Source of the DNA: Lophium mytilinum
Lineage: Eukaryota
DNA length: 64,000 nt
Assembly (NCBI GenBank): GCA_010093605.1
Contig: MU004181.1
Coordinates: forward strand, 2,418,001-2,482,000
Reading direction: 5' to 3'
In this document: positions 6,328 to 22,655 of the stretch, piece after piece
How the letters are laid out: the number at the start of each line of letters is the position of its first letter
Numbering within the stretch: position 1 is the stretch's first letter
Notes under the pieces: generated by a model
The model's database searches: none
The model's input: the letters and a program-made list of their open reading frames with translations, nothing else
Told to the model about the DNA's origin: nothing
Made by a program: the position numbers and the translations under genes

Positions 6328-8210
6328 ATGGAAGAATACGAGCTTCACCCGCCAGCGCCGCCTGCGATCCCGCCCAGCGCCATGCCCGGCGACCTCATGG
6401 ACCAGCGAAGAGAAGCCTTGCTGAACAAAAAGACGGTCCGCAAGCTTGATCTAATTTTGCTGCCTTTTCTTGCCCTGTTATTCCTGTTCAACTCGCTCGA
6501 CAAGTCCAACGTGAGCCCCACCAGCTGCAGCCTCCAACATAAACTAACAGCTTCAGATTGGAAATGCCGAGTCCGCACATTTCACGTCTGATATAGGGCT
6601 GGATAAGGAGGACATCAATACAGCTGTTGCCCTCTTCTTTGCCTTCTTTGTCAGCCTGCAGCCTCTAGGGGCCGCCCTGGGCCGGAAGTATGGCATGGTA
6701 CGCTGGGTCCCGTCTTGCATGATAATATGGGGTGTTTGTACGGCACTACATGTCTGGGTGCGGTCGAAGTGGCAGCTGTTCATTCTGCGTATCATTATTG
6801 GGGCGTGTGAGGGTATGTAGCTCTCTCCGATCCATGAACAGCTGCTAACGATATTCACCAGCTGGCTTCTATCCTGTGACTGTAGTATATCTATCCGTAT
6901 TCTATACACGATTCGAATTCGCCCGTCGATTGAGCTTGTTCTATGGTCAAGCAGCTGTGGGAGGTGCCCTCGGCGGTATACTCTCTTACCTAGTCTTCTC
7001 CCAATTCGGCGACGAACGGACAAACCAGCCCGACGATACTGGCGACGAAGGTTGGAAATCCTGGCAGGTGCTCTTCCTGCTTGAAGGATGCTCCACGGTT
7101 ATAATCGCCTTCGCTGGCTACTTTTGGCTCCCACACAGTGCCAAGACAGCGTGGTTCTTGACGCCAGAAGAGCGAGAATGGGCAGAACTGCGCATCCAGC
7201 GTGATATTATAGGAGAGACCAGCCACCATTCTAAGGACGACCAAACGGAAGACGACGACGACGACGAAGAGCGCCCCGACACCTCCGGGTCCGAGTCTCA
7301 CGGCCTCCTAAACCCCACCGCTCCGACTTCCACGAAAGTCCTCACAGACGACCGCGGCATATCCCCCCACGACATCCTCTCCGCCCTCACGTGCCCCAAG
7401 ATCTACCACATCCTCATCGTCAACATTCTCTCCGCGATTCCCGCCATGGCCTTCCAAGTCTTCCTCCCTCTCGTGCTCGCCCCATTAACCTCGTCCACCG
7501 ACGACCCAAACGAACCCGGAAAAACAAACCCAGCCCTCACAAACCTCCTGACTGCACCCCCCTACATCTGCGGCGCCATCACCCTCTTCGCCTTCGCCGC
7601 CTACTCCGACCGCCACCGCAAGCGCCTCCCCCCGATCCTCGCCGGTCTCTGCCTCCTCCTCTCCGGCCTCGTCCTCGTGGTCGTGATGCCGCAGACGAAA
7701 GCATGGGCGATCCCGCGCTACCTCTCCCTCAACGTGCTGCTCAGCGGCACCTTCATCGCTAGCCCGCTCACCGTCGCGTGGATTTCCGGGAACACGCCGT
7801 CGCCCGGGAAGCGCGCGGTGCTGCTCGGTATCAACGGCTGGGGAAATCTGGCAGGCGTGTTCTCGGCGCTGCTGTTCAAGCCTAAGTACCAGAAGGAGGG
7901 GTATATCACCCCGTTCTGGTGGACGCTGGTTGCTGTCAGTGTGGCGGCGGCGGGTTATGTCGTTTTCTGGCTGAATCTGCGGAGGGGAAATGAGGCGCGG
8001 ATGGCGCTGGTGAGGAGTTGGGATGCTGATGATGTGGAGGCTGAGCGAAGAGATGGGAGGGGGCCGGTTGGGCGGAAGAGAGGAGTTGCGTTGGGGTTGG
8101 CGAGGTTGCTTGCAGAGGTCAAGGGGTTCGCGGGGTTGGCGGAGTGGGTCGAGAAGGCGAGTGAGGGGAGAGAGGGAGATGAGAGGGTTACGTTTGTTTG
8201 GGGGTATTAG
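6328..8210 (+). CDS. MFS transporter, allantoate permease (Dal5)/anion:cation symporter-like
   Basis: VRKLDLILLPFLALLFLFNSLDKSN|IGNA start motif, YLSVFYTRFEFARR, WQVLFLLEG, AWFLTPEER and many TM helices; introns about 6511-6557 and 6813-6861. Confidence 0.9.
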
Positions 8211-8817
8211 AGTATTGAAGGCGTTTTGGTGCAGTAATTTCTGGTGTTCTTGGTGGCTGTTTGTTGAAGCATGACGATACCCGTGGGATCATATCTAAGC
8301 GTGAGACTTATAGGTTATGGATGGTTATTATTTGAGAGAATAGTTAGCTGTTTGCGAATGACTTGCGTAGGGTGAGGTATGTGAATGTCACGACGAAATT
8401 TTATGTGTACTCTTGAATGCTATCATGTGGACGGATATATTTTGGACACTGAAGAAGCGTTCTTGGCAGAGGATAAGGTTGTAACAGAACAAGATGAAAT
8501 AGCGCGAATGGGGATACCGAGGAAACTCTACTCTGCAGGAGTCTGTCGCAGTGACAGATCATGAGACTATTTCACACTCCTTTGCCACTGCCTGGGGTCC
8601 TACCACAAGATCTCATAAATCCAAGGGCGACGTCATGTTCCAGGCAGTGCAAATTAGACTGCCTGTTGACGGACTCGCGATTTAGTAGCCAGGCGACCCC
8701 TTATAGTGGTGTTGAGTAAGCAAGACTCGAACCGTGGTGTGCTGGATTCGTGTCCCCAGACTTATGATCTAGTACTGTACCAAAAGCCGACCACTGAATG
8801 GTTTTCTAGATAAGGCT

Positions 8818-11738
8818 TCATAGGTATGTAGGCATGGACCATGCGTCTGATGCTCCCCATGCATCTCCAAGAAGTCCGTTCTTCCATAGGCGGTATGCAA
8901 CATGCTTCCTCCAGCTAAGTTCGCGTGCCGAAGGATACGGGGCAAATCCATTATCGTTGTGCTCGCTGTGCTTGCATGTATGCTTCTTGACCCAGTTTGT
9001 GCAAGGCTGCCCAGCGGAATGATAGTCGATGTGGCTGTGTAACGAGCCTTCAGAGCCATCGACAAGATAGCTTCCATACAGATCAAACGGCGCTTGCCAC
9101 GACTGCCACACCCGTTGGCTTCCGCAGCATTGACATGAGCTTCCGTCGGTTGCAAACTCCTTCAGCTTTTTACTTTCGGGCAACTCAACATCTTCATGCT
9201 CTGCGACAACAGTATGGTACTTCTCGTCTATTTCGTTTTCTAGCCACTCGACACCGTATGCCTTGTCGTCTTTCTGAAGTATTTGAGCGACCTCGAGACC
9301 AGCTTTCTCAAGACACTCGCACCAAAGGGTCCAGGATGATGGTGACATGAATCGGTCTGACGGTGTGAATCCATAAGCGTTTTCAGAATTTGGGTCGCAT
9401 CCCATTTGAAGAAGTGATACGATGATTTCGCTTATTTCTTCGTACCATGCGGCACCTGGTCCATGGACATCACAGACCGTAAGTGGTGAAGAAATCCTGT
9501 GAAGGATTCCATCGGCGTCGTCATCGATGGCGCGTGTATCTGCTCCATACTTGAGGAGCAATCTCATCACACGCGGAAGCGCGCTAAAACAGAGATAATC
9601 TGTAGCAGACAGCAAAGGAGTCTCGCCCCAACCGTCTCTCACTTCTGTATCAGCACCACGTTGGAGTAGAAGTTCCAAGGATTGACAGGACTCGGTAATT
9701 GCATCATTGCTAGACCAGGAGCGAAAAAGCCACTGGATTGCGCTGTGAATGATCCCTTGAGTAAAGGTTCCAGTAATAGTTCCATCCCAATCGAGATGCC
9801 TTTCACATTCCACAACATCGGCACCTCCGGCAGCGGTGAGAGAACGTGTGGTATCTAAAATTCTAGTACCATGCTGCTTTTTTCTTGTCATTCGTTTATA
9901 GAAGATAGATAATGCCGAGGAGCCGTTACTGTGATATTTCCCATCAGAACTTACATTGTCGAAAGGAAAAGGGATGACTTACGAGTCACAGTCTAGCGTA
10001 TCAGCGCCTTCGATTAATAGTAGTTGCATGATCTCTACTTGGTGATAGTATGCCGCACACTATATATATGTCAGCGTTGCACATATTTGAAGGCAGCCAG
10101 TTGCTTGTCAACAATGAACGGTGTCTCACTCCCAGTAAGGTGTCTCCGTCGCGATTATCTCGGTCATTTAGGTGAACGCGATGGTCCCCCAACAGATCGC
10201 GGACACCATCAATGTGACCACCTGCGATGTAGCGCCATATGTCATGATCCGGCGGTAGGACTCCAAAGGTTGAAAGCAGAGGCGACATTGTGGGTGTCGG
10301 CGCGTTATTCGCAAAGGAGGCCGCAAAGCCACACACTGGAACTTCGGCTTTTGGGAAAAACAGCACTCGAAATCCTCCGAGTTCGGAGCCGTTTGACAGA
10401 AGAGGGTCGTTCTCGGATATGAAAACTGTTACCCTTCCGATAGGGCCAAGGTCTACACTGATTTTGGTTTCTCGAATTTCTACTGCTTCGCGACGTTTGG
10501 ACCTTTTCTTGTGGTTCCTTACGCTCGCTATAGTACGGAAATATGACGGATTGTTTCTCAACATTTTTCGGAGTGCGATAGGCTGGGATGGTCTGTACCT
10601 TCCAGCGTAATTTGACTGTTTCTTGTTTGAAGTAATCTCGTGGTAAGCCTGAGCATGCAAGATCGCTAGAAGAGATCTGAAATTATGGACAAGAATGCCC
10701 GCTCCGCTTGAAGAAGGCAGGACGTTTTCCGGGGATTGATGTAGTGAAGCAGCTGCGATTTCTTCGAAATGCTTTGAGAGCAGAGATAAAGAGGTCACGG
10801 CATCTTGGGCAGAGCCATTCATTATCACTTGATCTCCCAAAGAGGGCAGCTGGAGTGTGTTAAGACTTTCAACCAAGCCAGCCAGCCGGTCCAACTTATC
10901 CGTATTGGTGCTGACATGCTTTGAGAGTTGTTGTATCATTCCTTTCGATGTGGTACTATCAGAACGAGTTGCTGATAAATGGTCACAGGCAGTCGAAAAT
11001 CCCGTGACTATGGTGGACTTCAGCTCCTCTTGGCGGGTTGTGATTGTGGATAGGCTCAGGGTCTGTGAAGAGACTGTTTGAACGAGGGTTTGTGATATCT
11101 GGCGTTGATCGCGGCGCGTATCGCGTTGAGTCTGAACGATAGCATCGAGCTTGAGATGCGTTGTCGTATCGTTGCTTTTGAGATCGGTTTCCAGATTTTC
11201 TTGAGACTCTTGGATCGCTTTAAGACGTACTTGTGTCTCTAGATCGTTATGGCTGCGCAGCGTCAGTATCAGACTTTACTTAACACTAATATACTGACCG
11301 CCCAATACTAGACAGAATTTCAGAGATGCCCAATCTCCGCCGTTCCAACCTTCCCGAAATTTTACTCAACTCTTTTTCCTTGAAGACAGACTTTACTCGC
11401 TTCCCAAACCGGTTGAAGGCATGCTCGGCGCTGGACTCCGGGCCTCCGAGTAGGCTTTTGAGACGGGCCAGATCCTGAACGAAGAGCTTGAGCTCTTCGT
11501 CGAGATCATCGAAGGCTGACTGATGTAACGGTGCAAGCGATGAGTTCGAATATGACTGTTTAAGTGTTTTGCTCCGAATGAGCGCCTTCTCTAGGCCGGC
11601 AAGATGGCGATGGAGGTATCTCAGCTCCGCCGATGCTTGGCGCAAGGCTGAGATGAACTTGCACGTCTCTCGAATGGCTCTGAGACTCACGTCGAGAAGG
11701 CTGATGGACGCTGAAACGATAGAGAAGGGTTCGGCCAT
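8818..11738 (-). CDS. HeLo-like/SesA-type N-terminal domain protein with ankyrin repeats and a Cys/His-rich tail
   Basis: N-terminus MAEPFSIVSASISLLDVSLRAIRE...ELRYL matches the fungal STAND N-terminal (HeLo-like) pattern. Intron 11253-11298 joins in frame to ORF 10001-10939. Ankyrin-like units: NDRDNRDGDTLL, LLLQRGADTEVRDGWGETPLLSA, LLLKYGAD, LLQMGCDPNSENAYGFTP. Further short introns at about 9925-10130. Confidence 0.75.
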
Positions 11739-12515
11739 ACTTAGCTCGTAGGCTCAAGGGCTGGTGCTTGTGATGTAGGACCAGCTGAGGCGAGTGGGAA
11801 GGGGAGTAGACTTATCTAGCCCACAAGGCTGACTGGTGTTTCCTAACAGGTCGGCGAGCGAGACTCGAGCGGGATTTGCCTTGCTGTATGTACATACATG
11901 TTTCTGCGTTGGCATACTACACAAGGCTGAATGCATAAACTGTCTACAACGTCATCAGAAAGCATATCTAAATCACTGTAGGATATGTTAACTGCAACAG
12001 CTTTCTCCACAGTTCTTTATGATAAAGTCAGATCCTAGCGTTCTATCCGTTCAAAGAGCCCGCCATAGGAGGTAGAAGCTAGTGTGTCTAGAGGCACCAA
12101 AGCAAGCTACATGGCTCCCAGAACTAGTCAATACTGCCTTCCATGGTACCCAACTACGCAATGGTTTCTTTCGAAGGCTTTCAGAAAGGTGCGATGCAAA
12201 GGTTGGTAGATGATGGGGTTTAGAGGGCAGAGCACTGCGATGGAGACGATCATAGGCTGCACGTGATAGTCCTAATTTGTGTTAGTGGTAAAGTCTTCCG
12301 CAACCCCCATATGCCTCGGCTCCTGATTACTCTTCAGCGGTTATCGATGTGGACTCCATACATCGTGCTGATTCCCCTCTAGGTTTGAATTGGCTTTAAA
12401 AATTTACTAACTGTGCGACTTCCTGTCCTTTTCATCCGTCTTCTCTACTCACTACCTGCATTCATTACCTATCAACCCCAAGGTTTCGACTTTTTTTCTT
12501 GCCATAGCATGCGAG

Positions 12516-13496
12516 ATGGTGCTCGCCGCAACCCTGCCTGATCAAGTAGCCTTAAAAAAGATCTCCGAAGATCACTATGTCACTCTATTTAATCCGGACA
12601 AGATGGGGAACGCAGCTAACATTGCTTATGGTGGATGTACCGTTGGGGTTGGAGTAAATGCGGCCTATCAAACCATCAAACCTGGATATCATTGCTATTC
12701 CATCATGGGCAACTACCTTGGGCCCGCTCTCACAGACCGGAAATTGTTTTGCAAAGTTCGGCGATACAGAGACACTCGGACTTTTGCAAGCCGGCAGGTT
12801 GAAGTCAGTCAGGAGCAAGACGATGGAACACACCGTCCCTGTCTCATCCTTTTGGCTGAGTTCCAAGTCCAAGAGCCCGGCACTCTTTTTGATTATTCTG
12901 CGCCGCCTGCTTCCAAATATGCTCCTGCCGAGGACTCTCCTACCAGAGATGAAGTTACGAGTGCACTGGTGAAAGAGGGGAAAGTGTCACAAAAGATGGT
13001 CGACGTATTCAACATAGTATTCGGCCTCATGGCACGCTTTTGGGAATCGAGATCCCCGCCTGGTACCGTTATGTCGGAAAAGCTATACGGAATGGCGAAG
13101 CATCTAAAAACAACACAAGACCACTTGCCAATCACTTCGAAAACATCTGCTGAATGGGTACGGAGCAAGTCGAAACTGTCGACAGAAGCTGAGAACATTT
13201 CAGCACTCTCTTTCTACATGGACGGGGCCTTGTCGTTCATTCCTCTTTCATATAGTAACTTGTTTCTGCAAGATGCTGCCGCTTGTTCGACGCTAGATTT
13301 CGCTTTGCGCCTCTTTTCGAATAAGGTTGATATGAACCAGTGGCATATCAAAGAGATGAAAACGATTAATGGAGGGGAAGGGAGGACATACAATGAGGCG
13401 CAGATATGGGATCAGCAGGGAAACATGATCGCTTCTATGACACAGCAATGCATCATGCGACCACATAAGCCAAAGCCGGTGAAAGCGGCGCTTTGA
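12516..13496 (+). CDS. Acyl-CoA thioesterase II (TesB-like, double HotDog fold)
   Basis: Intronless 326 aa with AYGG, GNYLGPA, RDTRTFASRQVEV, FYMDG, STLDFALR and GRTYNEAQIWD...IASMTQQCIMR motifs. Confidence 0.85.
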   Translation: MVLAATLPDQVALKKISEDHYVTLFNPDKMGNAANIAYGGCTVGVGVNAAYQTIKPGYHCYSIMGNYLGPALTDRKLFCKVRRYRDTRTFASRQVEVSQEQDDGTHRPCLILLAEFQVQEPGTLFDYSAPPASKYAPAEDSPTRDEVTSALVKEGKVSQKMVDVFNIVFGLMARFWESRSPPGTVMSEKLYGMAKHLKTTQDHLPITSKTSAEWVRSKSKLSTEAENISALSFYMDGALSFIPLSYSNLFLQDAAACSTLDFALRLFSNKVDMNQWHIKEMKTINGGEGRTYNEAQIWDQQGNMIASMTQQCIMRPHKPKPVKAAL

Positions 13497-13958
13497 TTGG
13501 CCTGAGAATTGGTGAATGGAGAAAGATAATGGGAGTAAGGCTATGAACCGGGGATCAGTTTCGAACATCTATAGAACCTTGAACAGTCAAATCTCGTGCT
13601 CTTTCTGTTTTTGGTTACTCCAACTGATGGTGTGTTCTAACTCCACATCTTGAATTTGGTGCTCGTTACATGATCAAGGTAAAATTCGAAGATGAAGCTG
13701 CTAAAGGTTGGCCAGCACAGACCAAACAAGCACGAAAACGGTTCGCGTGTCGGGCACGTGACCATTCTGGCTCCGTTCTGCCAGAAACCTCATCCGAACC
13801 GCATCTTCAACCAGAGCTCAATCTCCAACAACGCCATCGAATCTCATCTCCCGCGGGCCCTGATCCACAAACCAGTAAGTCAATTCTGCACTCTGGAGCT
13901 CCCTTCGCCTTCAATTCGCGCCCTGGACGATGCTAACAAAGGTACCGCAGAGGCCGTC

Positions 13959-14322
13959 ATGAACTCCACCCGTGTCTTCCGCCCGCTCGCAAGGGCCGTT
14001 CAGCGCCAGCCGGGCATGCTGCACGCCTCAGCAATGGTCCGCCCTACTCTGGCCGCCACCCAGATCAAGACGAAGCAGACCGAGACTGCAGCCAAGCCAC
14101 AGGGACTGGTATGTAATTCACGAGCCGATGAAGCCGGGTACGGCTAACAAATTGCAGATGATGTACCGCGCGGCGATGCCCCAGCTCGTCCCCTTCTTCT
14201 TCGTCAACGAGACCACCGTTGCCTTCATTGCGCTCCCCGCCCTCATCTACGTCTTCTCCAAGTACGTTCTACCAGCGAAGGTCCGCACCCAGGCTGCGCG
14301 TCTGTTCATCAGCAAGCTATAA
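13959..14322 (+). CDS. atp8: Nucleus-encoded mitochondrial ATP synthase F0 subunit 8 with N-terminal targeting presequence
   Basis: Exon 1 13959-14108 (MNSTRVFRPLARAVQRQ...QGL), intron 14109-14157 (GTATGT...GCTAAC...CAG), exon 2 14158-14322 encoding MMYRAA followed by the 48-aa MPQLVPFFFVNETTVAFIALPALIYVFSKYVLPAKVRTQAARLFISKL, which has the fungal Atp8 MPQLVPF start, SKYxLP and FISKL end. A 5'UTR intron lies at 13875-13950. Confidence 0.9.
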
Positions 14323-14792
14323 GCATCGGATGGATATCAATGGGCGACTTAGTGAAGGAATAAGGGAGATATCTTTGCGGGTAGCAGCGGGTGTTGATTG
14401 TATATAAGGTCCTTTAGCTGGGCTAGACTTGCGTCAAGAATCAAGCTTTGGTTGAATCTATCTTCAACAGTATTATTGAGTGGTTTATGATCCGATTAAG
14501 ATATTCGCAAGCTACTGAATACTCCGCGCATTTCTCGAAAGCAGGTCTCGTGATAGCGGAAGGCGTCTGGTGTGAGCAGCTACTGCCAAAATTCTCTGTA
14601 AGTCATTACTGATTACCTAGGTATAGACTTCTGGACGTTACTCTCATACGCCATCCATCCGAGTTCATCCCAATCGCTCAATCCAACAATATCCCAACTA
14701 CTCTCGCCGTCGCTCTACTCATCAATATTTCAAACGATCGCGGAATAACCACTTCTTTTCCTTTTGCAGCGGCCTCTCCAAGGACAACCACC

Positions 14793-15263
14793 ATGTCCTC
14801 CTTATCCTTCCACTTCCGACGTCTCATCGCCCACCCAGCACTCCAGCTCTTCCTCGATGCCACACTACCCTCGCCCCGCGTTTCTTCCATCATTCTGTGG
14901 CTCTTATTCGGCATCGCCGGCGCCATGGCTGCAAGAACCATCCGCGCCAGACGCGAGCTCGGAAAGAGAAGGTCACGACTCCCAGACCGCATACCGGGCC
15001 CTATTGACAGAACTTCCGTGCTTCAGATTCTACATCTTTATCTCCGACCTTTCGAGACGACTATTTGGGCTAGGAGGTATGTTGAAAAACTGTTATGCTT
15101 TGAGGGATGATCGGCTAACCGAGCAAGGCTAAAACGATTCTTCTTCCCGCGGCTGAGCCATAACAGACCTAATTTTAGTGGCGATGAGGGATGGGAGGGG
15201 GTAGACGATTGTGTCGTTAGGGCGCGATTTGTCTTGTTCTGGTGGCATGATAGGAAATGGTGA
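14793..15263 (+). CDS. Small hypothetical single-TM protein
   Basis: ATG 14793, hydrophobic IILWLLFGIAGAMAA segment followed by a basic stretch; putative intron 15077-15127 (GTATGT...GCTAAC...AAG) restores an open frame to TGA at 15261-15263. Confidence 0.45.
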
Positions 15264-16336
15264 CAAGACAGAAACGAGATTGAGTGATATTGGATGTTAT
15301 TGGCTGTTGATAGGCTTGGTTGGGCCTTTGGCGTATTCGATATTCCGGCGTTCTGCGGAGGCAGATGGCGCTGCTAGGAGTTCACTGTTCAATGAGGGTT
15401 TGGAGACGTGTCACCGTTCAGCGTCATATTGCTATCAAAATGCATTGCCAGAGCCAATGGCCATTCAATTGACTTGTCAGAGCAGTTACAGTAGTGAGTA
15501 CTATTCGAGGCTCTCTTACTCACTTGGTAGGAGGCAGTCCAAGCGTACTCATTCAATCCCATAGCGTACTTGTAAGTACCGCTGGGATTTGCGGTCATCG
15601 TAGTCCAGATGTGTGATCACTAGTGAATATGTAGATACTCAACACTAGATGGGTACCAAAATGCCAGTGTTCTGGTCCGTATAGTAGTGCTACAGGCTTA
15701 TTATCTCGGACTAGCGGAAACTCGACAGGCTACTTCTAGAAACTTGGGCCAACAGCTTTTACTTCTAATGTGCATAGACCCATCTACCTATGTCTAATAA
15801 TACAATGAAGCACTCTAAACAGTAGTAGCAGACAACTCACTCCTCCATGCCGAGTCATTACAAGTCGGCTATTCGGTAGAACACGACCTTAGACTTTTGC
15901 ATGAACTTCGGACTAATTTCGCCAACGTATAAAAAGTTCATCAAGTGCGACCCGGCTGTCTGTTTATACGAATGTTGTGATACCAAACCCCGCATCATTT
16001 GTTGCCCTGTTGTTGTTCAGTCGGCCCATCCCGAAGTTAACGTCTCGTATGCATGTGCCCCGTTTCCGAACCGACTCATGGGTCAAACTCACTTACTCTA
16101 GGATATCTGGCCCAGCCTGAAACGAGTTAAAACCGCCGTTGCACTTTATTAAAGTAGGCAGGTACGGCAAAGCAAATCCGAGAAAGTAGATAAGTACTGG
16201 CACACGAAGCTAGTTGGTAGAGAAAAAACAAAAGTCAATTCTACTCGAAGCAACTATATCGACGTTCTCAATTCGAGATTACAACACTTCTTCAACCTCG
16301 AGATCCCGGGACCAATCAATTACCAGCAACCGGACC

Positions 16337-17083
16337 ATGGGCAGACTAGACGGAAAAGTGGCCATGGTCACCGGCGCCGGCCAAGGAATGGGAGCAGCGC
16401 ATGCCCGCAGAATAGCGTCTGAAGGCGCAAAAGTCGTCCTGACAGACATCGACGCCGCCCGCGGCTCTCAAGTTGCCAAAGAAATCGGCCCAAACGCGCT
16501 TTTCGTCCAGCACGACGTCGCGTCTATGAGCGACTGGACCCGGGTGGTAGCCGAGGCAGAAAAAGCCTTTGGACCGGTGACAGTCCTAGTGAACAACGCC
16601 GGCATACTGGGCCCGGTAAAGAACATTATCGATTTGTCTGTAGACGAGTACATGAAGGTTGTGGCGGTGAACCAGCACTCGCAGTTCTACGGCATGAAGG
16701 CTGTTGTCCCGGGCATGAAGGCGGCGGGTGGGGGCAGCATTATCAACATCTCTTCCATTGCGGGACTGGTTGCGTCGGTTGGGGCGCCGAGTATTGCGTA
16801 TGTGGGGAGCAAGTTTGCCAGTAGGGGTATGACGAAGCAGATTGCGGTGGAGTTTGGTCCCGACAAGATCAGAGTGAACTCGATACATCCGGGATATATC
16901 AAGACGCAGATGATGGAGGCTGCAACGGATAAGGAGGGTGGAGGTATCGCGAGTGGGTTGGCCTTGAGGAGGATGGCGGAGCCCGATGAGGTGAGCAAGG
17001 TGGTGGTATTCCTAGCTAGCGATGATGCTAGCTATGTGACTGGTGTCGAGCATCCTGTAGATGGAGGGTTTACAGCGGTTTGA
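16337..17083 (+). CDS. Classical short-chain dehydrogenase/reductase (3-alpha(20-beta)-HSD / glucose-1-dehydrogenase-like)
   Basis: [19 protein letters not shown] (TGxxxGxG), LVNNAG, INISS, YVGSK (YxxxK), IRVNSIHPG and [13 protein letters not shown]; intronless. Confidence 0.9.
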
Positions 17084-17594
17084 GGGCATCACATGTCTTA
17101 GAAGATGAAACACTTGAACAGTCTACGATTGGAAAGGGATCTCAGCTAAAGGAGAGAGGACGTAGGAAACATCGTCATTGTCGAAGGCCTGGTTTTGAGA
17201 GCGTGATCTGAGTGACAGACTTGACCCTGAACTATGAACTTCAAAAAAAGAGTGATGAGTTTAGCGAGGTGGGTGATGAACTTGACAACCATTTCGAGGC
17301 AGTGGACCAATGACTAGTCGCCCCGCAGGGCAGAGAGGCAGCTGCAATTCAATATGCCTCGCATGCACAAATGGGTACACTATAAATCCTACACATGGCC
17401 TTACTGAGGTAAGAAAAAAATCGTCCGTTTAATACATGATATCCCTAAAAACTGGTGTATTTCAATCCCTCAGCGATCTTCTAATGCCCATAGGAAACAG
17501 TCCAGCATATAAAAACCCCATCCGAAATAATTCGCCGACCCCTTGCCCTCCTTCATTCTTCTTGACCACCTGAAGGGATCATTTTTCCTCAGGC

Positions 17595-17846
17595 CTAACG
17601 TCCGTTGTAGTATTTCTTCTCATCTTCCGGGTAGCGGTTTTGCGGAGGTGCCTCTTGATAGTATCGTTGCGGAGGCGCTTCTTGATAGTATCGTTGTGGA
17701 GTATATTCTGGCTCGCGGCCTGTCCGACGAACAGGCTCCTCGTAGCGCGGAGGTGGAGGCGGAGGTGGATTGCTCTCTTTGGAGGAGGAGCTTTTGCCAA
17801 GTTTGTAGGCACCGAGGCCGAGGAGACCGAACTTAAGCTTGGTCAT
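17595..17846 (-). CDS. Small hypothetical Pro/Tyr-rich protein with a 9-aa tandem repeat
   Basis: 83-aa ORF with poly-Pro and a PQRYYQEAP repeat (27-nt period, frame-preserving); TATA-like CATATATA about 40 nt upstream on the minus strand. Confidence 0.4.
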   Translation of the reverse strand: MTKLKFGLLGLGAYKLGKSSSSKESNPPPPPPPRYEEPVRRTGREPEYTPQRYYQEAPPQRYYQEAPPQNRYPEDEKKYYNGR

Positions 17847-19229
17847 ATTTGGTAAGGCAAAGCGAGGCGGTTGGGTTGAATATATATGTAGTGGGCCGTG
17901 GGTTTTGGTTTCAATATGAAATTGTGATTTGTGAGGCGGAGGTCAAGCTTTAGATCGTATAGCTGCTGATGTGTTAATGAAAGGGAGGATGGTCAGTCTT
18001 CTTATAGAGAATGAGGGTCCGTAGAGTCCTTGGAACGCGTTGCATGATGCCGCGCGGATCCCGAATACGTAGGGCTGTGAGGGGTCGATCATGATGGCTG
18101 AAGACCACTGCGGCGTGTTCCAACGTCACCAAAAGTCGATGCTCAATAGTCGTCGCATTCGCTCCATGTTCATTGGGCTGATGATCCGTTGAGGCAGTGC
18201 TGCTGTTTGAAAGAACAAGGAACGGACTTTGGACGTCGGAGAGCACGGTGAGACTCGCCGGACGACCAATCAGGGGCGATTACCAGTTTGGAGCAGTGCC
18301 ACGAAAACACAACATCGACATCGCCTCTATAGTACATGCCATTAACGTCTAGAGGCTCAAGGTTCATACGTCTGGAAATTTAACGCTCGTTGCTAAACCC
18401 TCCCTAAGAGTTTGACTTGTTTATCAAGGCAGAGCATCTAAAGGTAGGAAACTTCACTACCGGCCTTTCTTCCAACTCTACAAGTAACTATCGATGTCTG
18501 GTTTCATCAGCATGCTGTCTCCCCGAACTCACACGCCTTGTCCAGAGAACACATCGTTGTATACCTGGACTTGGTGAATCTCCTAGCCCTCAACATCAAA
18601 TCTTACTATTCACTACAGCCTTCTCAAGATCGTCAATATGTCGCTCCGCGCGGGTCCATCATCCGAAGTATCTATGGGTTCACTCAAAGCTTCTCACTTT
18701 GATAGCCGCGACGTTGTATATTTCGGTCTGTGGTCAGGCGATGCGGTAAGATTGCTCCAATCCCATAGACATATCTGACAGCGTAAAAGAGCAGCGATTG
18801 ATGATATGCTTATTGGCTAGCCAAGTAAAGTTGGCGTGGATCGGCTTGAGTGTCATTGTAAGACGACACTGGAAGAGCTGCACAGCCTTCAATCAGGCGT
18901 TGACACATGGCGTAGAGTAAGAGGTCCCACGTCAAGACACAGGTCTACCCGTGAAGTTGGAAAATCATCGACTCCATTTGCGGGTAGAGTTGCGTTCTTA
19001 TGCGAAGCAACAACACAGTTCAGGTCTTTAGCCACATGAAACATGAATAGGGTCATAGTGCTGATCGTTCGGAATGCACACAGAAGTCACTGAATGAAGT
19101 TTGACAGGGAGAGGGTATGAAACCATGCATAACAAGGAAGTTTTAAGAAACAGCTTAGCCCGATGGATCAACTTGCTTAGTCTTTACCTATGATGCCCGA
19201 GGGAGCTGACATTGAATAACAACTAGACC

Positions 19230-20595
19230 CTACGACATGTAGAGCGAGAAATTAGTGCCCTTCCATCCATCCAAGTAGAGCGCGTCCTCCAAAGCGATTA
19301 TGCTCATGGATTGGCGGAAAAAGCTATTCACCGGGTTGTTCGAACCGCGCAATTCGAGAGACGCGCCTGCGTTAGCTACAACCTTCTCCGCATACGCTGC
19401 TCGTAGGGCTCTGAGAGCCATCTTCCGGCCATGACGAGACATTCCTTTGGGGAGATTGCCAAGATGTGGGGTCGTCGTTACGGTAGTCTTGCCAACTCGC
19501 ATGTCCGCGATGCGTTGCTCCATCCGCTTGACGGGCCCGATATCGTCTTGTCCATCACTTACCCTCAGTTCAGCTGTATTTCTCGCCAACATCTCCATAT
19601 CATCGCCGGTCTTTGTAGAATCCGCTACCTTTGACAAGACTTCAAGGTAGGTCATCAGCGTATGTGCTGTTCCAATCTGCGTATCACTCATTTCAGGGAT
19701 GTCTTCGTCCACTGTGGGATACATGGCACAATATTTCTCCCGCGCTGTAAAGAATCCAGGATTGTGCATGTTCTCGAACACGGCGTCGCGAAAAGCTCCT
19801 AAGAGAGGTGATACGTCAAGCCCGAGACGTTGCTTCGCAAACGCAAACATTGCCCACCATAGACCGTGAAAGGTACGGAAGGAACGTTTGCCATTAAGAT
19901 CGCCGAAGTGGATCATGCGAGTTGTTTGAGGATCTTGGCCCTTGTAGACGTTGAAGCGTTCAAGCAGCGCTCGGAGTCGTATCTCATTGTTGGCAACATA
20001 GTATTGGAATGTGCAATCGGGAGGTGACCTGAATGATCAAGCATTTCGCATTTAGCCTGGACTGGGTTGGCAAGATATAGTTTGCTTACAGGTAGCCATG
20101 CTCGCATAGCTCTTTGAAGTGGATTTCCTCCCTGTTGTGATTATGTGTGTCAATGCCGTTTGTAGGTACGAGAGACGCAAGTGTTCCTACTCCGACAGCT
20201 GGTATAGGGTTATGGGCAAGTTCCTCGTCGCATCAATCAGAATCTCTCTCCATCTCCTCTCTGCCACTTCCTCCTTTTGCTCCTCGTCGTGTTGTGTTAG
20301 TGCCCTGCCGCGCCTGTTTCCGCGACGCTCCATTACACGGTCTGGTGCCCCGGCCAAAGCAAGCCGAGGGATCGGGGTGGTGTGAATAAGAGTGGAAGCG
20401 GTTGAGCGAGACGAAGAGCTGTAAAGAAGATGAGGTAGGTGTTTTGAAATTGCGAATGGAGGTCACGTGGAAAGGCAGCAAACCAGGCTTTCGTTTGGGT
20501 ATCGTTGCTCTCGTAGTTGAGATCTGCACCTCCTCTTCCACCACTATCTTAGTCAGTTCAGCAAGATTACTTTTTACCAGAGCAATCTCGTTCAT
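19230..20595 (-). pseudogene. Hypothetical gene whose upstream part is interrupted by stops; possible pseudogene
   Basis: The 228-aa ORF (19230-19916) extends upstream in frame to a plausible intron (about 20030-20089, GTAAGC...CAG), but both candidate upstream frames contain an in-frame stop (TGA at 20233-20235 or TAG at about 20187). Confidence 0.35.
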
Positions 20596-21315
20596 AATTA
20601 TGAAAGCGCATCAAGGCTCTCTAGGTGGCAGCAGAGGCGCGCACGAAGATCTGTGACAAGGTATGTAAATCGCAAAAATGACCCGAATTACCTGGAAAAG
20701 GGCTGTGATAGTCAATCATCTGTTCCCTGCCTCTCGCTCACCATGTACAATGCAACTACTAACGTACTTACGGCCACCTCTTCCGCTAGAACGCATGGAA
20801 GCATCCAGTGCTGAAGAAGCTGCTGTCCATAAGGGAAGGCAGGTTTACAGCCCGCATCATCTTGATATACTGGGACTGAAACTATGCACTTAAGTTATGG
20901 GACAACATAATATCAAGCTTCTCGTAGAAAGGAGGAACAGGCCATATGGGGTTCTTTTCAAGTTGGCGGGCGCGGGAATGGTGGTGAAATAGCTTTGTAC
21001 ACTGTTACAGACAGTTTCACGCTCTTCCAGCTAATGTCCTGAGACGTTGAAATAGTTGCTTCTTCTTTTTGTTTTGTGAGACGGCAGATGATGAGGTTGA
21101 GATGAAACCGTGCCAAGACTGGGGATAATTTAGCAGATCCCTGCACATTTTCTCCCTCGCGTCTGACTTCACCCGTCGACGCGCGACAAGACTCGAAAAT
21201 CTTCCCAGCATACCGCCTCACCCTTGTGTCGACCAGCCCTCACCTATCCTCATTTGCACTGCTGTGACCCTTCTCCAGCTTCTCGACCTCCGTACTCCAC
21301 CCCGACGCCCTCGCC

Positions 21316-22655
21316 ATGGGCTCCCGACTGCACAACGCCCCCATTGTCCTGGATAATGGCAGCGGGACAATTCGGGCTGGGTTCGCGGGACAAGATGTAC
21401 CGAAATGCTACTTCCCATCATACGTTGGGCGCCCGAAACATGTGCGGACAATGGCAGGCGCATTGGAAGGCGATGTCTTCATCGGACCCCAGGCACAGCA
21501 ATATAAGGGGCTATTCAAGATCAACTACCCACTAGAGCACGGCATAGTCACAGACTGGGACGACATGGAGCGGATATGGCAGTATGTCTACACAGAGGAG
21601 CTGAAGACAGTGAGCGAAGATGTATGTGTCTCTTAGCAACACCTAGATGTGGCTTGCGCCTCAAGGGGACCACTGAAGCTAATCAAAGCCCTGCGCTATG
21701 TTACAGCATCCCGTGCTGCTCACAGAACCGCCCCTCAATCCGCGAGAGAACCGCGACATGGCTGCCCAAATCCTCTTCGAAACCTTCAATGTGCCCGCGC
21801 TATATACCTCGGTTCAGGCCGTGCTCTCCCTCTACGCTTCCGGCAAGACAACAGGCATCGTTCTAGACTCTGGCGATGGCGTGTCCCACGCTGTCCCAGT
21901 CTTCCAAGGATTCGCCATTCCAAACAGTATCAGGAGAATAGATGTGGCAGGCAGAGACGTGACGGAGCATATGCAGCAACTGCTGAGGAAAAGCGGCAAA
22001 GTTTTCCACACCAGTGCGGAGAAAGAGACTGTCAAGCATCTCAAGGAGACGACCAGTTATGTTGCGCTGGACCCGGTGAAAGAGGAGAAGGAATGGTCGG
22101 GCAGCTCGGCAAGGACGGATGGGAAGAGCGTCGAGTACACGCTGCCCGACGGACAAAAACTAAAGGTGAGAGTCCAAGCAGTGTAACCTGCTCGAGCAGG
22201 TGCTGACACCGTGAAATTCAGATTGGCGCAGAGAGGTTCCGGGCTCCAGAGATTCTCTTCAATCCCGAGCTCATTGGCCTGGAGTACCCTGGCGTTCACC
22301 AGATCGTTGTTGACGCCATCAATCGGACGGACATGGACCTGCGGAAGGCCTTATTCGGAAACATTGTGCTGTCTGGAGGCTCCACACTCACCAAGGGCTT
22401 TGGAAATAGGCTGCTCAACGAAGTGCAACGGCTCGCAGTCAAGGATATGAGGATCAAAATCTTAGCGCCTCCTGAGAGGATATACACAACGTGGACCGGA
22501 GGCAGCATTCTCGCTGGCCTCAGCACTTTCAAGAAGGTCAGTTCCCCTGTGTCATGGACAGGGGCCCAGATGCAGCGGCTAACCGTGCGTAGATGTGGGT
22601 TGAGAAGGATGAATGGCAAGAGAACCCCGACATTATCCACACAAAATTTGCGTAG
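21316..22655 (+). CDS. ARP1: Actin-related protein 1 (centractin, dynactin filament)
   Basis: [101 protein letters not shown]; three introns; ends [20 protein letters not shown] then TAG at 22653-22655. Confidence 0.93.

Follow-up and report, generated by a model that had tools for sequence, protein, structure and literature searches.

A spliced nuclear gene for ATP synthase subunit 8 in Lophium mytilinum and its relatives among the Dothideomycetes

The gene for ATP synthase subunit 8 (atp8) is carried by mitochondrial DNA in most fungi. Analysis of a 64,000-nucleotide stretch of Lophium mytilinum DNA (the window) revealed a nuclear atp8 that is transcribed and has both of its introns spliced, encoding a precursor of 104 aa in which Atp8 is intact. 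The best explanation, to which we give a probability of about 0.86, is that this is a working nuclear subunit 8 gene that moved, probably in a single early event within one branch of the Dothideomycetes, that it is the ortholog of the Pleosporales gene and that its product is imported into the matrix. The Lophium gene adds one more case to a relocation already published, and the basic fact has been reported and annotated before. What is new here is the breadth of the clade, a likely sorting adaptation in the protein and an apparent uncoupling of atp8 from atp9.

Structure and expression of the gene

All features of the gene lie on the forward (+) strand, and its anatomy is that proposed in the earlier note, a leader, an Atp8 core and two introns, with coordinates and translation borne out. 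The first, non-coding exon occupies 13825..13874, with RNA contigs of two relatives (X2 and X3) starting at 13825 and joining onward from 13874, although a contig start cannot prove the true 5' end of the exon. It is followed by a 76-nt GT..AG spliceosomal intron in the 5'UTR (13875..13950) with a donor, a branch site at 13933 and an acceptor. Coding exon 1 (13959..14108, ATG at 13959) encodes residues 1-50 of a presequence-like leader that is conserved in relatives and amphipathic over residues 5-15. A phase-0 leader intron of 49 nt, also GT..AG and with a CTAAC branch site at 14144, lies at 14109..14157. Coding exon 2 (14158..14322) opens with the last six leader codons (14158..14175) and continues into the 48-aa Atp8 core and its TAA (14176..14322), in which the membrane helix spans approximately 14197-14268 and the codon for Pro21 is at 14236-14238. 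The spliced frame thus gives 104 aa, a 56-aa leader and a 48-aa core.

The identity of the core is well supported. The search with a fungal subunit 8 HMM that had been proposed for it matched PF05933 along all 48 positions of the model (E 1.3e-19, 70.5 bits, curated cut-off 26.1), and the family alignment matched the solved Atp8 6b2z_A (E 1.6e-14). A predicted-structure model of the 104-aa product has helices at 64-87 and 90-103, with pLDDT 82-87 in blocks 71-100, that is, one membrane helix and then a C-terminal helix as in fungal Atp8, and a leader without confident structure; the ESM Atlas returned no usable match. The protein resembles the fungal family (PF05933; 6b2z_A) in its 48 residues, MPQL start and two helices, and differs from it in being nuclear-encoded, spliced, made as a precursor, less hydrophobic and in having Pro21 in the helix. 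The spliced product is letter-for-letter identical to P0001, a record with a Mytilinidiales label that its sources name "ATP synthase protein 8".

Evidence for transcription came from contigs of four RNA runs (X1, X2, X3 and X5) out of 14 listed. These belong to four studies, and X2, X3 and X5 represent relatives that are 90-99% alike. Both atp8 junctions were present in the contigs of all four runs examined. The junctions of both introns are exact in X1 (more than 99% alike) and X5. In X2 the second junction is exact and the first differs by three letters, and X3 joins at both intron sites with differing letters. The leader intron at 14109-14157, whose junction the earlier note had singled out for checking, is therefore skipped exactly in X1, X2 and X5. 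The RNA status of X1 is a program's guess, and as X1 may be the source behind the assembly or annotation it is not independent; two further GT..AG stretches, near 14970-15125, are missing from it, as expected of spliced RNA. The contigs give no expression level, and their depth was not used for that.

The surroundings of the gene gave several further observations. One X1 contig (12419-14338) runs unbroken across an upstream acyl-CoA thioesterase gene (12537-13496, PF13622/PF20789), a 300-nt gap and spliced atp8. This may reflect overlapping transcripts or read-through; a contig does not equate to a single transcript. Spliced X1 contigs also occur at 14657-15300, with joints near 14970-15025 and 15075-15126; a 165-aa open frame in this region had no Pfam match, and the region may be a small gene of unassigned family or a non-coding RNA. 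Farther downstream there is an ordinary short-chain dehydrogenase gene (16214-17083, PF13561). Comparison of positions 8000-22000 with eight nuclear atp8 loci gave one match outside atp8 (in L016), and within these short contigs the neighbours of atp8 are mostly not common to the eight loci.

Candidate regulatory elements were found at both ends of the gene. A CACGTG box (13755..13760, + strand) is a candidate promoter element within 400 nt of the ATG; such a box occurs in this position in 4 of the 7 loci with upstream DNA (the window, L013, L016 and L017) against a background of 12 of 159 400-nt windows, for a motif picked after inspection. A 5'UTR intron of matching type was present in 4 of the 6 nuclear atp8 loci with enough upstream DNA. 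In the 3'UTR, TGTATATA (14399..14406, + strand) is a candidate Puf3 element, with the motif given as UGUA[ACU]AUA in the accessible text of PMC4654594. The segment around it (14393-14454) is conserved in the metatranscriptome relatives X2 and X3, where the only letter of the motif that varies is the degenerate one at 14403. The exact Puf3 8-mer was observed in 3 of 9 nuclear atp8 3' regions, two of the three being near-identical (background 6/852 windows), and the TGTAYA core in 8 of the 9 (background 44/852); TGTAYA sites lacking the exact 8-mer may be Puf4-type. Since the motif was picked after inspection it is a lead only, and we suggest weakly that the predicted element may tie the atp8 mRNA to mitochondrial post-transcriptional control.

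The nuclear copy and the state of mitochondrial atp8 and atp9

The earlier note had read the gene as a relocated and expressed nuclear atp8, as opposed to a raw NUMT, and this is supported by the PF05933 match, the splicing, the nuclear codon use and the identity to P0001. The locus lies on G000:C1 among nuclear genes, and it was the only atp8 match in the 43.4 Mb assembly with each of three queries (its own core, the Pfam model and a mitochondrial-type Atp8). A raw NUMT is AT-rich, unspliced, often broken and mitochondrial in codon use, whereas this gene is intact and spliced, with a core GC of 0.57 and GC3 of 0.83. Among the best 80 of 527 confirmed metagenome atp8 loci, eight were GC-rich (GC3 0.66-0.94) and 72 were AT-rich and mitochondrial-type (GC3 0.06-0.27). 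In one of the mitochondrial-type sequences (L038:3001) atp8 has no stop and, translated with table 4, continues into a frame of 371 aa; in L036 an identical core ends after 48 aa.

The genome does hold NUMTs, and it could be asked if the gene is a pseudogene derived from one, or arose by chance fusion with a reading frame upstream. The real NUMTs of this genome are, however, of a different kind, as its atp9-like pieces are broken and 26-36% GC, and the alternative does not fit the spliced transcripts, the nuclear codon use or the conservation of leader, intron and open frame over many genera. The splice junctions and this conservation have already refuted it, and its probability is negligible.

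The mitogenome is not in the assembly, in which searches for atp6 and cox1 gave nothing over cut-off, and so the loss of mitochondrial atp8 from L. mytilinum is something we infer. The absence of the mitogenome also leaves room for a dual-copy state, in which mitochondrial atp8 persists and the nuclear gene serves as an additional copy for particular conditions or stages. Several filamentous ascomycetes have such an arrangement for atp9; Podospora, for example, has two differentially expressed subunit 9 genes (PMC3420929, in part). Published mitogenomes speak against this. Atp8 is described as missing from all reported Pleosporales mitogenomes in the accessible text of PMC8956966, its loss is also noted in the corresponding portion of PMC7225605, and it is not among the genes listed for Macrophomina in the portion of PMC8451660 available. 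More indirectly, PMC12804741, as far as its text was accessible, applies the same 12-gene threshold to mitogenomes of the Mytilinidiales, Phaeotrichales, Venturiales and Pleosporales. Lichen mitogenomes, including those of Arthoniales, keep atp8 (PMC6467859, in part). The assembly contained atp9 NUMTs and no atp8 NUMT was found in it, although this is a weak argument because NUMTs sample little of a mitogenome. Overall, we consider a dual-copy state improbable, and loss of the mitochondrial gene the better reading.

A GC-rich nuclear atp9 was not found in the assembly with a mitochondrial Atp9, the nuclear Atp9 of a Mytilinidiales relative (P0155), two families and two motif patterns as queries; only broken, AT-rich copies were recovered. 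These are atp9-like NUMTs at G000:C5:464829-464978 (L098, L107) and G000:C21:184669-185727 (L095, L097, L105), and one of them adjoins a nad2-like piece. TIGR01260 gave nothing over cut-off in the assembly. PF00137 gave three multi-hit loci, which are presumably V-ATPase proteolipids. The two matches to the first motif pattern were set aside as chance, as a control pattern also gave two, and one pattern recovered the C5 copy and served as a positive control. The lack of a GC-rich nuclear atp9 suggests that atp9 is still mitochondrial in L. mytilinum, although it could possibly reflect an assembly gap or heavy splitting of a nuclear gene by introns. If real, the combination of nuclear atp8 and mitochondrial atp9 would mean that the relocation of atp8 was apparently uncoupled from that of atp9, and would resemble the condition of those Botryosphaeriales mitogenomes that have atp9 and lack atp8 (PMC8451660, PMC4366305).

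Relatives, leader and number of transfers

Longer relatives were sought among 55 candidates, of which 49 proteins qualified; 39 have a taxon label. The earlier note had suggested that annotation could easily overlook this gene; with that many relatives returned and the identical protein already on record under its proper name, this was not borne out. The labels include Mytilinidiales, Phaeotrichales and Trypetheliales, whose lineages were checked, and further labels that we assign to the Pleosporales and Botryosphaeriales. The atp8 precursors therefore span labels of five Dothideomycete orders, a breadth that is added here. Pleosporales-labelled precursors are ~56-65% identical to the Lophium protein over the whole alignment and have the leader in common with it.

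The leader is a candidate mitochondrial presequence, with a composition and hydrophobic moment that fit a basic, amphipathic signal of that type. Its 56 residues include A10, T6, R6 and K3, giving nine basic residues to one acidic, with no acidic residue in the first 30, and the hydrophobic moment of 1.00 at residues 5-15 was reached by 0 of 2000 shuffles. For comparison, the nuclear Atp8 of Stemphylium lycopersici has a TargetP presequence score of 0.916 in the accessible part of PMC5626475. There is no conserved Arg before the mature Met, position -3 being K in 28, Y in 5 and R in 2 sequences (n=37). Most of the relatives, 37 of which were aligned, share the leader, and a profile built from eight sequences scored 19.7-82 bits on 42 of the 49 Atp8 N-extensions. 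The seven without a score were three Trypetheliales leaders and four unlabelled records resembling mis-called or partial sequences. On the profile the Trypetheliales leaders (P0038, P0043 and P0170) gave -0.8 to 0.6 bits, and the cores behind them are nuclear-type; it is possible that the leader was replaced or independently gained in that order.

Attempts to trace the leader to a donor gave no candidate. A word search with exon 1 covered only proteins of 27-88 aa and was hence uninformative, and a search of the Lophium genome returned only atp8 itself. The leader profile had 21 matches among 1.84 billion representatives, including P0008, and all were rejected as donors, as they resemble atp8 precursors or atp8 exon 1 with intron read-through. 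Nuclear Atp9 was likewise rejected (hhalign probability 0.1%; no profile score above 10.1 bits among 108 Atp9 extensions).

The acceptor of the phase-0 leader intron precedes the mature Met by 18 nt in seven of eight nuclear loci and by 21 nt in the eighth, with positions reconciled from two imperfect acceptor-picking passes. This agreement in intron position among the nuclear copies examined points to a single old transfer. A 48-column tree separated the 39 nuclear cores from 47 mitochondrial cores by one branch with support of 100/81; the bootstrap was unsettled, and support dropped to 98/64 when P0190 was added (P0027, P0035 and P0047, which are without a clean 48-aa core, were left out of trees and hydropathy counts). 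With a homologous leader, a common intron position and a common grouping of cores, the gene belongs to the Pleosporales-type nuclear atp8 orthogroup.

These data can also be read as a working gene with at least two separate transfers or leader captures, the Trypetheliales, for example, standing apart from the Pleosporales, Mytilinidiales and Botryosphaeriales. The lack of a profile score for the three Trypetheliales leaders fits this, and nuclear cores that adapted to import convergently could be drawn together in so short a tree. Against it are the position of all nuclear cores on one side and the intron 18 nt before the mature Met in 7/8 loci, including the divergent L019 and L020, in a sample from outside the Trypetheliales. 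We regard multiple events as unlikely, and a single old transfer as the simplest reading of the sequences, with Trypetheliales the undecided case. The mapping across orders that the earlier note had called for was in this way run in part, with five order labels for which one transfer is simplest.

One record stands apart from the others. P0190, an Atp8 precursor of 131 aa without Pro21, has a homologous leader (37.8 bits). It is labelled Pyrenula, a Eurotiomycete, and its source is a metagenome-assembled genome. Mis-binning may explain it; a correct bin would push the transfer, or a lateral copy of it, outside the Dothideomycetes.

Membrane helix, sorting and significance

Comparison of nuclear (n=39) and mitochondrial (n=47) cores revealed lower hydrophobicity in the former, with a GRAVY of 0.94 versus 1.24 and a best 19-residue hydropathy window of 1.76 versus 2.23. 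Proline occurs within core residues 8-29 in 38 of 40 nuclear cores versus 1 of 47 mitochondrial ones, and Pro21 is present in 37 of 39 nuclear cores. The nuclear cores are kin, and the contrast in hydropathy and proline may hence represent one event and not 39. Native Atp8 is oriented N-out/C-in, with its N-terminus outside the matrix, so that a matrix-bound leader combined with simple stop-transfer would leave it the wrong way up in the membrane. A proline in a membrane segment works against arrest and promotes transfer to the matrix (PMC2171449), and a relocated Atp9 needed lower hydrophobicity (PMC3420929, in part). Given the helix prolines and lowered hydrophobicity, we infer that the protein enters the matrix, is cleaved there and inserts from within; the less hydrophobic helix with its Pro21 is likely a sorting adaptation that would fit such a route.

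We hypothesize that the precursor passes TOM/TIM23 by virtue of its basic, amphipathic leader, and that the less hydrophobic, proline-bearing helix escapes stop-transfer, allowing Atp8 to reach the matrix. The precursor would lose its leader there, and Atp8 would be inserted from the matrix side by conservative, Oxa1-type sorting. Such insertion would give the native N-out/C-in orientation in the Fo stator, beside the mitochondrially made subunit a.

The closest known system is that of S. lycopersici and other Pleosporales; in S. lycopersici both atp8 and atp9 are nuclear with predicted presequences (Franco et al. 2017, PMC5626475, in part), and atp8 transfer is also stated for Shiraia-like fungi (PMC11881002, in part). 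The Lophium and Stemphylium genes are alike in being nuclear and in having a presequence-like N-extension before a full Atp8. They differ in that the matching record here is Mytilinidiales-labelled, splicing is seen in RNA contigs and searches of the present assembly did not recover a nuclear atp9, which in Pleosporales is nuclear as well. The claim of a relocated and expressed copy is supported, but not as a novelty, the Stemphylium gene having been published with its TargetP call. The nuclear atp9 genes of Podospora (Atp9-5 and Atp9-7; PMC3420929, in part) are comparable in that a subunit of Fo was relocated, acquired a presequence and has a membrane segment of lowered hydrophobicity, but the subunit is another one, with leaders unrelated to this one by the hhalign and profile scores given above. 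Engineered allotopic ATP8 is likewise nucleus-encoded; it carries a presequence, is assembled into ATP synthase and works in yeast (PMC3420929, PMC13684279) and in mice (PMC11629202). The engineered versions have a borrowed presequence and an unchanged core, whereas the natural gene combines a leader of its own with a remodelled helix. The earlier note had also offered the gene as a model for allotopic expression of ATP8. Its value in that role is limited, since a presequence and recoding sufficed in yeast (PMC3420929) and the approach works in mice.

With the basic fact published and ATP8 among the easiest genes for nuclear expression, the gain here is incremental. In the open-access literature, no report was found of nuclear atp8 mapped across orders, of nuclear atp8 in Mytilinidiales or of its proline. 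Natural atp8 transfers are rare, numbering fewer than six according to the accessible text of PMC10809612, and a well-sampled clade therefore shows the changes that accompanied a successful move. Taken together, the observations might tentatively be read as a move of atp8 that took place once before at least five Dothideomycete orders split, independent of atp9, and that was fixed by a leader without a traceable donor, by a new proline and lower hydrophobicity that send Atp8 by way of the matrix, and by a Puf-type site in the 3'UTR, although in this full form we consider the reading doubtful. If it were true, L. mytilinum would be in an unusual split state, nuclear atp8 with atp9 only in the mitochondrion. 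Species with nuclear atp8 and mitochondrial atp9 would show that the two relocations were separate events, and Pro21 with the softer helix would offer a direct test case for hypotheses on hydrophobicity and sorting.
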